From positions 357,095-421,094 of the forward strand of contig CAQZSK010000001.1 in the NCBI GenBank assembly GCA_948934525.1: a DNA stretch of 64,000 nt. The letters are read 5' to 3'. Shown here piece after piece: positions 47,940-50,150 of this stretch (position 1 is its first letter; every line of letters begins with the position of its first letter). The DNA is from an uncultured Clostridia bacterium (GTDB lineage Bacteria; Bacillota; Clostridia; TANB77; CAG-508). The notes beneath the pieces were generated by a model that searched no databases, was not told where the DNA came from, and saw nothing but the letters and a program-made list of their open reading frames with translations. A program made the position numbers and the translations under genes.

Positions 47940-50150
47940 TCCAGAAGGAAGAAAAATAAATATGAGATTTAATAATATGTTGAAAATTTAAAAATAAAAA
48001 ATAAGAAATGAGAAAATAGAAATATGCAAAATAATGGTACAAAAAATAAAATAAAAAAGTAGAACGAAATAGACGAAAGCAAAAAACAAAATTAAATTAT
48101 AATAGAATAAAAGATGATAGACAAAAAGACAAACCATAAAACAAAAAATAGAAAAATAAAAACGGAAAATTAAGAATAGAAAATGAAATAAAAAATAAAT
48201 GGTTATTTTATAAATGCAAAATAAAATAATGTATTTTAAAAAAGAAAAATTAATAAAATTAATAAAATAAAAAGATAAGTCAGAAAAATAAAATTACAAA
48301 ATGATAGAAAAAAATAAAAAGGATAACAAACATAAAAATGAAAAATGAGTAAAAAAATGGAATAAATAATAAGTAAAATTAATAATAAAAAATAATCTAA
48401 CAATAGAATGAGAAAAATAAAAAATAGAATAACGAATGTGAAAAAAGAAAGAACTAATTAATAAAGCAGATGGAAAAAAGAGGAAAATAAAAATGATATA
48501 AAAGACAAAATTAACATAATGTTTTGGGAATTAAAAGAGAATGCAACAAGGAAAAGAGAGAGAGGGAAAATAAAGATAAAAAAATTTACAATTAGACAAT
48601 ATTCTACAACAACATAAGTTGTTTTTAATGGAAGGTAAGAAGAGAGCAAAGATAGAAAATATCTAAAAAAATGTTTAAGAGTCTCAAAAAGATAGAAAAA
48701 ATCTAAAGAAAAAGTTTGCAAAAGCTTTACGGTTAAAAGGAAAAATGTGAATAGGATCTAAAACAGAGCAATCCAGAGATTAATTTACATAATGAAAGAA
48801 AATTGCAGTGAAAAATGTCCAAATGAGAAGAATGAATACATGAAGTAGCATGCAAAAGAAAAGCATTATACAATAAGACAAGATTTTAGTGATTGAATAT
48901 TATGTGAATAGGTGAAAAAAAGTGTGCTAAAATCATTTAAAAATCAGAAAGAAAATAGAATAAAAATATTGAGTAAGGAAAAAATGAAATAGAAAATTTA
49001 ATCATAAAAATAATAAAATTTAAGTATAAGATAACAGATAAAATTATGTAGACTTGGTAAAAATGAAAATAAAAAATAGAATAAAATAATAAAGAATAAG
49101 AAAATAAAATGCAAATAATAAAATACAAAAAAGAAAGAAAAAAATAACAATGGAAAAAATGAAAAAAGATATCAAGGAAAGATAAAAAAATGTTTAACTA
49201 ATTAAAAATAAAAAAGTAGAAGTAAAAAAATAAAGAAGATAATAATAAAACAAAAACGAAAAGTGAAAAGCAAAAAAGGAAATAGAAAAATTAAAAAATA
49301 AAAAATTGAAAGAGAAAAAAATAAAATAGAAAAATGAAACAAAAAATAAAATAGACAAAAAGACAAAGTGTAAAAAATAAAAAAGAAGAATAAAAAATAG
49401 AAAAAGAAAATTGAAATAAAAAATAAATGATAAAAATAAAACTGAAATAAGAAATAAAAAAATTTAAATAAGAAATAAAAAAATTTAAAAACATAGAATT
49501 AAAAAAAAGATGTGTAAATGAAAATAAGAAAAGAGAAATTAAAATAAAATAAAAAAGGAAAAAGAAAAAAAGAAACTACAAAATAAGAATAAAAAAGAAA
49601 AAGTACAAAATATTATTTTACAAAATTAAATTTTGAAAAGTAGAAAATATAAATTGAGAAAAATAGAAAATTAAAAAATCAAATAGTAGGAAAATAAAAA
49701 TAAAGTTACAACCAAATAAAATAGAAAAGTAGAGATAAAGAAAAAAAGACAACAAGTAAGATAGTAGAAGATGGAGTGAGATGGAGGTAGGAATATGTAG
49801 AGTAAGAAATTAGAATAAAAATGACATTTAGACAAATATAAAAAAGAAAAAAGCAAATAGCAGATACTAGCTCACTAAGATATGCATGAAGCAAAGAAGA
49901 GAAGATAGAGAGAAAATATGTATAAAAGGAAGAAAAATGGAGAAAATTTGGCTTCAAAATACTTAAGGATATCAAGGAAAAGAGAAATTTATGCAGACAA
50001 TTCAAAAAAGAAAGAAAAGGTTACATAAAACAATAAAATAAGATAAAAAGGGCTAACGAAAAATCTTCAGCTAGTATCCATAGTTAGAACGAATGATAAA
50101 ATTAGACAATAAGACAAAATATAAATTAAAACGAATGTTTCTGAAAAAGG
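47940..50150 (+). other. Purine-rich, C-depleted low-complexity noncoding tract (~2.2 kb), copy 2
   Basis: Same composition as 5690-7860: A/G-dominated + strand, almost no C, no + strand ORFs, only low-complexity minus-strand artefact ORFs. 21-nt tandem duplication near 49446-49489. Confidence 0.6.

Follow-up and report, generated by a model that had tools for sequence, protein, structure and literature searches.

A lineage-specific two-module non-coding region upstream of sbcDC, and its diverged paralog, in uncultured gut Clostridia

The window analyzed here is a 64,000-nucleotide stretch of the genome of an uncultured Clostridia bacterium (contig CAQZSK010000001.1), with a GC content of about 29%. 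It opens with mnmG-rsmG-parA-parB and two tRNA-Ser genes, and yidC-jag-mnmE lie just upstream of the equivalent region in relatives. From what is established for Firmicute chromosomes, we take these two gene sets as evidence that the window adjoins the replication origin. Over the window, cumulative GC skew rises monotonically, so the + strand is the leading strand throughout. Our subject is tract 2, the 47940-50150 region upstream of the sbcDC operon, together with tract 1, the 5690-7860 region (5663..7864); both are given on the + strand. Related loci in gut Clostridia carry the handles L003 to L092, and a scan for SbcC with one genome per species yielded 75 related loci. Genomes of this clade are roughly 1.6 Mb (1.57 and 1.70 Mb in two complete relatives), and in the genome under study only the two tract loci are visible in about 73 kb examined.

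Composition and anatomy of tract 2

A sequence-only reading had described 47940-50150 as purine-rich and C-depleted on the + strand, and base counts bear this out (A.605, C.053, G.144, T.198; purines.749). Outside the two tracts, no 2-kb segment of the window exceeds.664 purine or falls below.073 C, and the remaining intergenic DNA has A.41 and C.124. No open reading frame (ORF) of at least 50 aa was found on the + strand of tract 2, where the longest open stretch is 50 codons, and no frame is consistently open on the - strand. All three stop codons occur in every frame, at the count expected from composition, and 3-nt periodicity is absent (P3 0.8x background vs 17-27x in the flanking genes). 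A coding reading was rejected on either strand, by periodicity and in an alternative genetic code. Decay of a flanking gene was ruled out as well: tblastn of the neighboring proteins against tract 2 returned nothing at E <= 1.

Tract 2 is composed of two tandem modules of ~1.2 kb, each with an A-rich block followed by a motif block of ~480 nt. The features are, in order:

47873..47906, + strand: terminator-like hairpin and T-run closing the FGE-lectin gene; 5' boundary of tract 2
47907..48512, + strand: A-rich block a, an unconserved low-complexity spacer recognized by composition, with no alignment to orthologs beyond composition
48513..48996, + strand: motif block A (distal), from nhmmer (E = 8e-61) and alignment, with orthologs in L006/L089 and L091
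48585-48600, 48724-48740, 48783-48798 and 48867-48882, + strand: motifs M1, M2, M3 and M4 of block A
48997..49747, + strand: A-rich block b, with a 21-nt x2 duplication (49446-49487) and larger degenerate arrays found by tandem-repeat analysis
49748..50215, + strand: motif block B, the sbcDC control region, from nhmmer (E = 4e-66), a nine-unit alignment and a promoter scan
49821-49837 (degenerate), 49961-49977, 50019-50034 and 50102-50118, + strand: motifs M1, M2, M3 and M4 of block B
50129-50140, + strand: palindrome AAACGAATGTTT of block B, directly upstream of the -35
50151-50156 and 50174-50179, + strand: -35 and -10 of block B
50203-50209, + strand: stretch holding the Shine-Dalgarno sequence AAAGGAG, followed by the sbcD ATG at 50216
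50216..51293, + strand: sbcD, driven together with sbcC by block B, as two ORFs (50216 to 50725; 50697-51293)
51324-53306, + strand: sbcC, after sbcD

The recognizable sbcD promoter reported at the 3' end (TTGACG, 17-nt spacer, TAAAAT at 50151-50179) is kept upstream of sbcD in five related species, and no + strand terminator lies between tract 2 and sbcD. At the 5' edge, which follows a terminator, no promoter is obvious by eye. The view that the 3' edge is more than assembly noise also holds. An independent Logan assembly is 100% identical to the window over 47460-53843, and orthologous tracts were recovered in metagenome-assembled genomes (MAGs) from other samples by other assemblers and pipelines; tract 2 is thus not an assembly artefact.

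The A-rich part of each module measures 570-750 nt, is of low complexity and lacks detectable sequence constraint. It is filled with nested degenerate tandem arrays with periods of 7-83 nt, in keeping with the many degenerate arrays that Tandem Repeats Finder reports for tract 2. The short tandem duplication noticed earlier is real and exceeds chance: the 21-nt unit occurs as exact copies at 49446-49466 and 49467-49487, and the period-21 exact self-match extends over 24 nt, while the longest in shuffled sequence reached 19 and 23. Blocks a and b show weak in-register similarity at an offset of 1228-1236, and the strongest Fourier peak of both tracts lies at about 1.1 kb, half the tract length. 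We found no 10-11 nt peak of the kind expected from helical phasing of A-tracts, and only a weak periodicity of ~7 nt.

Between species, the A-rich blocks do not align beyond composition. In tract 1, L084 and L085 are distinguished solely by a 91-nt indel within an array of 7-nt repeats. The A-rich blocks change by slippage, as tandem duplications and indel polymorphism attest, and duplications beyond chance and length polymorphism between strains were found in these blocks only. They resemble cryptically simple, slippage-generated AT-rich DNA (micro- or minisatellite-like) in low complexity, arrays, the strain indel in a 7-nt array and neutral composition, and likewise share no sequence between orthologs. 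Unlike such DNA, they are kept at two orthologous loci in compact genomes, at 350-780 nt each, alternating with blocks under selection.

Several further observations concern the A-rich blocks. The heptamer AAGTAGA occurs nine times vs two expected, and a 22-nt exact match (AAATAAAAAAGTAGAAGTAAAA) links window 49206-49227 with L006 371-392, which are non-corresponding A-rich blocks. A candidate motif M0 (AGACAAAAAGACAAA) from the A-rich blocks of the window was rejected, as other species do not conserve it. In L006, the 654-nt A-rich block at 1279-1932 carries 16 clustered substitutions relative to L004/L089/L090, and its other A-rich block and its motif blocks are nearly identical to theirs; this cluster may reflect recombination import or strain-mixture assembly and was not used as a rate estimate. 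Short-read MAG contigs repeatedly end inside A-rich blocks (L003-L005, L007, L008, L082, L083 and L092), so the tracts are systematic assembly breakpoints in this clade.

The texture of the tracts was then set against sites free of coding constraint. In + strand letters, four-fold sites of the + strand genes of the window (n=37) have A.603, C.056, G.071 and T.271, and those of the - strand genes (n=9) have A.556, C.033, G.083 and T.327. Read in sense letters, leading-strand genes have A.60 and T.27 at these sites, and lagging-strand genes A.33 and T.56. Silent sites here follow the replication strand, not the sense strand, and mutation bias therefore already predicts most of the tract composition. 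This pattern differs from the conclusion for Bacillus subtilis (PMC13323073) and from the one reported for Staphylococcus aureus (PMC3174206). In L080, L091 and L084, too, tract composition follows the four-fold sites of each genome; in L084 the neutral sites are G-poor (.04) and the tract likewise (.06). Across the four genomes A and C of the tract equal the four-fold values, and in three of them G is about 2x and T is lower.

The purine-rich, C-depleted look is essentially that of unconstrained leading-strand DNA in this clade. Since leading-strand four-fold sites already share the A and C content, no special process is needed for the texture, and the earlier proposal of a recurrent process generating such tracts is not supported in the genomes examined. 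As this is the expected neutral look in the clade, composition alone should not flag such tracts.

Conserved motif blocks and their relatives in tract 1

Tract 2, which lies between a core type IV coupling protein (T4CP)-like gene and sbcDC, is non-coding, lineage-specific and conserved among orthologs. A purine tract upstream of sbcD is limited to the closest clade, L003-L008 (SbcC 66-81% identical). Distant relatives lack it and show the ancestral state: the T4CP-like gene followed by sbcD and sbcC, the gap measuring about 100-400 nt. At least three species have the two-module layout in orthologous position, and five have the last block; complete tracts reached through the upstream gene in L089/L090 and L091 have the same layout. 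An nhmmer unit profile found only the two tract-2 blocks of the window and the sbcD-upstream regions of L003-L008 (E 1e-47 to 1e-84), and nothing else in about 1.3 Mb.

Conservation in the motif blocks is concentrated in four islands, with consensus sequences TTTACAATTAGACAAT (M1), GCTTGCGGATAAAG (M2), GTWTACATAA (M3) and TAGACAATAAGACAAA (M4). M1 and M4 are variants of the same 12-mer, ACAATWAGACAA, which at <= 1 mismatch occurs 11 times in the window vs 2.9 expected, with 8/11 of the copies inside the tracts. An exact 12-mer pair lies 281-283 nt apart in L004, L006 (twice), L007 and L008, and in relatives a third copy follows 103-104 nt further on, at -10/+1. Spacing is nearly fixed: M1 to M2 is 138-141 in six units (the seventh, in L003, is cut by a contig end), M2 to M3 is 58 in 7/7 units and M3 to M4 is 84-86 in 7/7. 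It is held across species with SbcC merely 66% identical, and in the nine-unit alignment the sequence between the motifs is saturated and has drifted to background. Promoter and palindrome are present in every proximal block, and AAACGAATGTTT is not a general motif across the window.

Distal and proximal blocks are distinguished by derived states, TTTAC[AG]TAATG being common to the distal blocks and ...ACATAAAAT to the proximal ones. From this grouping we infer that the block duplication is older than the species compared. Between L007 and L008 the block core (462-856) shows 2% divergence vs 7.8% at sbcC third codon positions. In L006 vs L004/L089, the B block has one substitution in 507 nt and the A block none in 490 nt. 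The motif blocks thus diverge more slowly than third codon positions and are evidently under purifying selection.

Tract 1 is similar to tract 2 in composition and in layout (A-rich, complex, A-rich, complex), as the sequence-only reading had said of its texture. It is made up as follows:

5663..7864, + strand: tract 1, paralogous to tract 2 on the evidence below, orthologous in L080-L086
5663-6090, + strand: AT-rich block
6253-6270, 6382-6395, 6441-6453 and 6529-6542, + strand: M1', M2', M3' and M4' of motif block A', diverged
6720-7370, + strand: A-rich block
7469-7485, 7598-7612, 7657-7670 and 7735-7749, + strand: M1', M2', M3' and M4' of motif block B'

The tract adjoins the tRNA-Ser genes on one side and a PMT_2 glycosyltransferase gene on the other. 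This gap is conserved in L080-L083 (PMT_2 72% identical) and L084-L086 (62%), and the orthologous alignment yields the islands AATGACATATTGACAA (M1'), TTGCGGAATAA / TTCGGAA (M2'), GTAKACATAA (M3') and ATTTGACAA (M4'), which are still readable in the more AT-rich L084. The pairwise alignment suggested earlier as a check failed in its plain form, giving about 60% identity at every offset, that is, compositional similarity only; the tract-2 nhmmer profile did not reach tract 1 either (E = 8.8). A model of position weight matrices (PWMs) plus spacing, trained on tract-2 units only, succeeded. It scored the tract-1 blocks of L080 at 46.3 and 23.2 bits, above a null maximum of 19.1 bits from about 2.7 Mb of positions scanned on both strands. 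Block A' of the window scores 17.3 bits, inside the null range, and its homology to tract 2 rests on its orthology to the L080 block. The shared layout and these scores support a relationship between the tracts beyond composition, with tract 1 a diverged paralog.

DnaA boxes (TTATCCACA-like) number 24 vs 20.3 expected in the window, without enrichment, and one lies in a tract. For parS (TGTTNCACGTGAAACA) the window holds no match with fewer than three mismatches and the tracts hold none. Regular identical short repeats of the CRISPR type were not found in the tract.

Two other places in the window recall the motifs. An M3-like GAGTTTACATAAAAC lies at 3447-3461, just before the Shine-Dalgarno sequence of parA, and the 162-nt spacer before mnmG (472-633) forms a small A-rich tract (A.59) that holds an M4-like AAAAAGACAATAAAAT.

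Readings of the motif blocks

We give about an even chance to the reading in which the motif blocks form, within neutral spacer DNA, a lineage-specific scaffold that binds proteins at the DNA level. Constraint on blocks that are non-coding and lack RNA structure was counted in its favor, along with the neutral-like composition, the slippage in the A-rich DNA, the conserved modules and the conserved promoter and palindrome. On this reading, the blocks would act as DNA, a polar scaffold of sites for one or more sequence-specific proteins. The 12-mer spacings, 281-283 bp (about 27 helical turns) and 103-104 bp (about 10), could allow looping or cooperative control of sbcDC. Proximal block B, with its promoter, palindrome and Shine-Dalgarno sequence, is the control region proper, and the distal block and tract 1 may serve as additional binding platforms. 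The A-rich DNA would be spacer at mutational equilibrium, tolerated or needed for its length and not for its sequence.

Known regulatory regions offer partial parallels. Like SOS-type (LexA) operators, the conserved palindrome abuts the -35 of a DNA-repair operon. It differs in sequence: block B has AAAC-N4-GTTT (AAAC-GAAT-GTTT) upstream of the -35, where the canonical LexA operator, or Cheo box, is GAAC-N4-GTTC, for which the window has no good match. As in the looping regions of lac, gal and ara, the same 12-mer is repeated, at about 27 and 10 helical turns, and one copy sits at -10/+1 in relatives. Here, unlike there, the repeats are direct and not inverted, the span is far longer, there is no known regulator, and further copies of the block lie 1.2 kb upstream and at another locus, where there is no gene to regulate. 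The 12-mer is probably not the operator of a known global regulator, because it is almost exclusive to the tracts in the window and fetched loci, the sole DNA searched.

Several points weigh against such a scaffold. No binding protein for M1-M4 was identified, and the near-confinement of the 12-mer to the tracts in the DNA searched counts here as well. M1-M4 always lie on the same strand, with no inverted copies, and the distal block A has lost its promoter and retained M1-M4. In tract 1 the spacing is looser (M1' to M2' 129, M3' to M4' 78-88), and that tract has no downstream gene to control, ending at the terminator of a convergent gene. The scaffold leaves the persistence of about 2 kb of unconstrained DNA in compact genomes unaccounted for. 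Tracts of the window clade also keep a residual relative to neutral sites, about twice the G and one third less T; together with motif polarity, this residual would also fit a function of a + strand transcript.

Such a transcript, the main rival, is in our estimate unlikely. It could precede sbcDC as a long untranslated leader or exist as a long non-coding RNA of its own, kept purine-rich and C-poor to evade Rho, in which M1-M4 would be single-stranded RNA motifs for RNA-binding proteins or processing. On the + strand G exceeds C and A exceeds T, with G and T departing from the neutral level in the window clade; all motifs are polar, and the path into sbcD is free of + strand terminators. In B. 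subtilis, purine-rich, C-poor sequence escapes Rho and pyrimidine-rich antisense RNA is terminated (Dierksheide et al. 2026, PMC13323073), and tract 2 has the sequence character in question (purines.749; G.144; C.053), including extreme purine excess, C depletion and a pyrimidine-rich antisense strand. It differs from the sense strands of that study in that four-fold sites here follow the replication strand and not the sense strand. The L084 tract has no purine excess over neutral sites, which speaks against the transcript. A terminator precedes tract 2 and no conserved promoter is seen by eye at its 5' edge, while tract 1 runs into a convergent gene, the hairpin at its end having its T-run on the opposite strand.

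Structure is also lacking for an RNA of this kind. Neither tract has a gathering-score match in Rfam, nor one at E <= 1. RNAalifold on nine units gave 0 consensus pairs, and fold energies do not exceed those of shuffles (z = -0.34 and +0.49). Tract 2 is like the large non-coding RNAs OLE, GOLLD, ROOL and HEARO in its kilobase scale, conservation, lack of genes and occurrence in Firmicutes; unlike them, it has no Rfam match, covariation or folding beyond shuffles. The invariant motif spacing would be hard to justify in an unstructured RNA.

Next in order, and also improbable, is an origin as debris, in which decayed mobile DNA or duplicated promoter regions accumulated at two insertion-prone intergenic sites and drifts at mutational equilibrium, and the motifs are former recombinase or transposase sites or slowly decaying sequence. 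Composition close to neutral and the existence of two paralogous copies agree with this, and so does the turnover of genes at the 5' edge of tract 2. The window has the FGE-lectin gene there. L089 has a PDDEXK_2/Rpn (transposase-like) gene and a lectin-like 3' remnant of ~200 nt between the T4CP-like gene and tract 2 (12678-13760; L090 is alike), and in L091/L092, which have no FGE gene here, tract 2 directly follows the core T4CP-like gene and its terminator. The 5' edge seems to be an insertion hot spot; its hairpin and T-run in relatives differ from those of the window and are homologous between L091 and L089. Tract 1, for its part, adjoins tRNA-Ser genes, and tRNA genes are a classic integration site.

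The debris reading also draws on M3, whose reverse complement, TTATGT(A/C)(A/T)AC(T/C), resembles the XerD-side arm of Firmicute dif (TTATGTAAACT) and in L005 is identical to that arm of B. subtilis dif. The M3 site differs from dif in having no partner arm or palindromic inner bases, its other side being a conserved AAAAT and not TTATG. Further, dif is single copy at the terminus, and M3 is origin-proximal with four copies per 64 kb. A dif or Xer site was rejected: the XerC arm is missing, the skew does not switch and the window carries mnmG-rsmG-parA-parB.

Several results speak against debris. In the motif blocks, change is slower than at third codon positions, and spacing stays exact between species with SbcC only 66% identical. 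The tracts contain 0 inverted or terminal inverted repeats, and in the window no transposase or integrase lies beside tract 2, whose neighbors there are T4CP-like, lectin and sbcD genes, the PDDEXK_2/Rpn gene occurring only in L089. The motif block matched no plasmids or phages, and the gapped M1...M4 pattern gave 0 matches in IMG/VR. Two matches in JGI metagenomes were taken as chance, falling in DNA of ordinary composition with long ORFs. Similarity to neighboring proteins, as noted, is absent.

A more speculative proposal, to which we give little weight, sees in the tracts a new family of architectural chromosome elements close to the origin, or else a Rho-immune unstructured long RNA. In the architectural version, a stiff or easily melted AT-rich tract, alternating with polar XerD-arm-like (M3) and GACAA-type sites, might halt loop-extruding SMC or give it a place to unload, or might provide an anchor during sporulation. 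AT-rich DNA is said to act as a roadblock in an archaeal SMC study, a lead and not a test.

It is very improbable that tract and lectin gene form a duplicated unit, as first suggested, or that an FGE/Big_2-linked process creates the tracts. The 813-aa Big_2/lectin (10751-13192) and 414-aa FGE-lectin (46509-47753) proteins are true paralogs, each tract lies less than 3 kb from one of them in the window, and L089 has the lectin-like remnant before tract 2. In L084, a diversity-generating retroelement (DGR) cassette lies about 2.2 kb from tract 1, beyond the PMT_2 gene. The unit is contradicted by L091/L092, where tract 2 has no lectin gene, and by L089/L090 with their PDDEXK_2/Rpn gene. At tract 1 the distance to the Big_2/lectin gene is 2.9 kb, with two glycosyltransferase genes of the opposite strand in between, and composition needs no special process. 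The window holds no second, template-repeat-like copy of the 3' end of either lectin gene, and no reverse transcriptase was found among the neighbors scanned, so no DGR component was recovered here.

That the tract is an assembly artefact, or a hidden protein gene in another genetic code, can practically be dismissed: short-read contigs of relatives do often break inside the tracts, but the independent assembly is identical, orthologs come from several pipelines, stops fill all frames at chance level and periodicity is absent.

Neighboring genes and implications

The T4CP-like gene (43389-46333, Pfam TraG/VirD4) and the preceding 174-aa gene keep synteny with sbcDC in about 70 related species, at 63-82% identity (L010-L077). 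Being core and syntenic to this extent, neither gene is part of a conjugative element. On the other side of the tract, sbcD is split into two ORFs (169-172 aa and 182-198 aa) in every tract-bearing species (window, L003-L008 and L089-L091), and distant relatives encode it in one ORF of 354-403 aa. In L003 there is no overlap between the two ORFs, which suggests that SbcD is truly two-piece in the tract-bearing clade and that the split is not a sequencing error.

An N-terminal hydrophobic helix (VVTIVxLLILAGITxTYV; 51% identity) is common to the two lectin paralogs, and we take it to resemble a type IV pilin-type leader region. The start of the 414-aa ORF falls within this helix, consistent with a truncated or frameshifted 5' end. 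The ~200-nt remnant in L089 has the look of a lectin gene's C-terminal variable region. In L084/L086, the DGR cassette (5435-9413; RVT_1, bAvd, MutS_I and a 640-aa putative target) occupies the place of the 813-aa Big_2/lectin gene of the window. Elsewhere in the window, a full-length Rfam match to the RT-14 RNA (76.8 bits) lies at 26868-27011, upstream of a UDP-glucose pyrophosphorylase gene, and the neighbors scanned include no reverse transcriptase.

For those who scan genomes of this clade, a purine-rich, C-depleted stretch is the expected look of unconstrained leading-strand DNA, and the tracts break short-read MAG assemblies. For the biology of these bacteria, genomes of roughly 1.6 Mb retain, at two orthologous loci, about 2 kb of DNA without genes, and the motif blocks within this DNA are a testable candidate for a DNA-binding system that may control, or be associated with, sbcDC.

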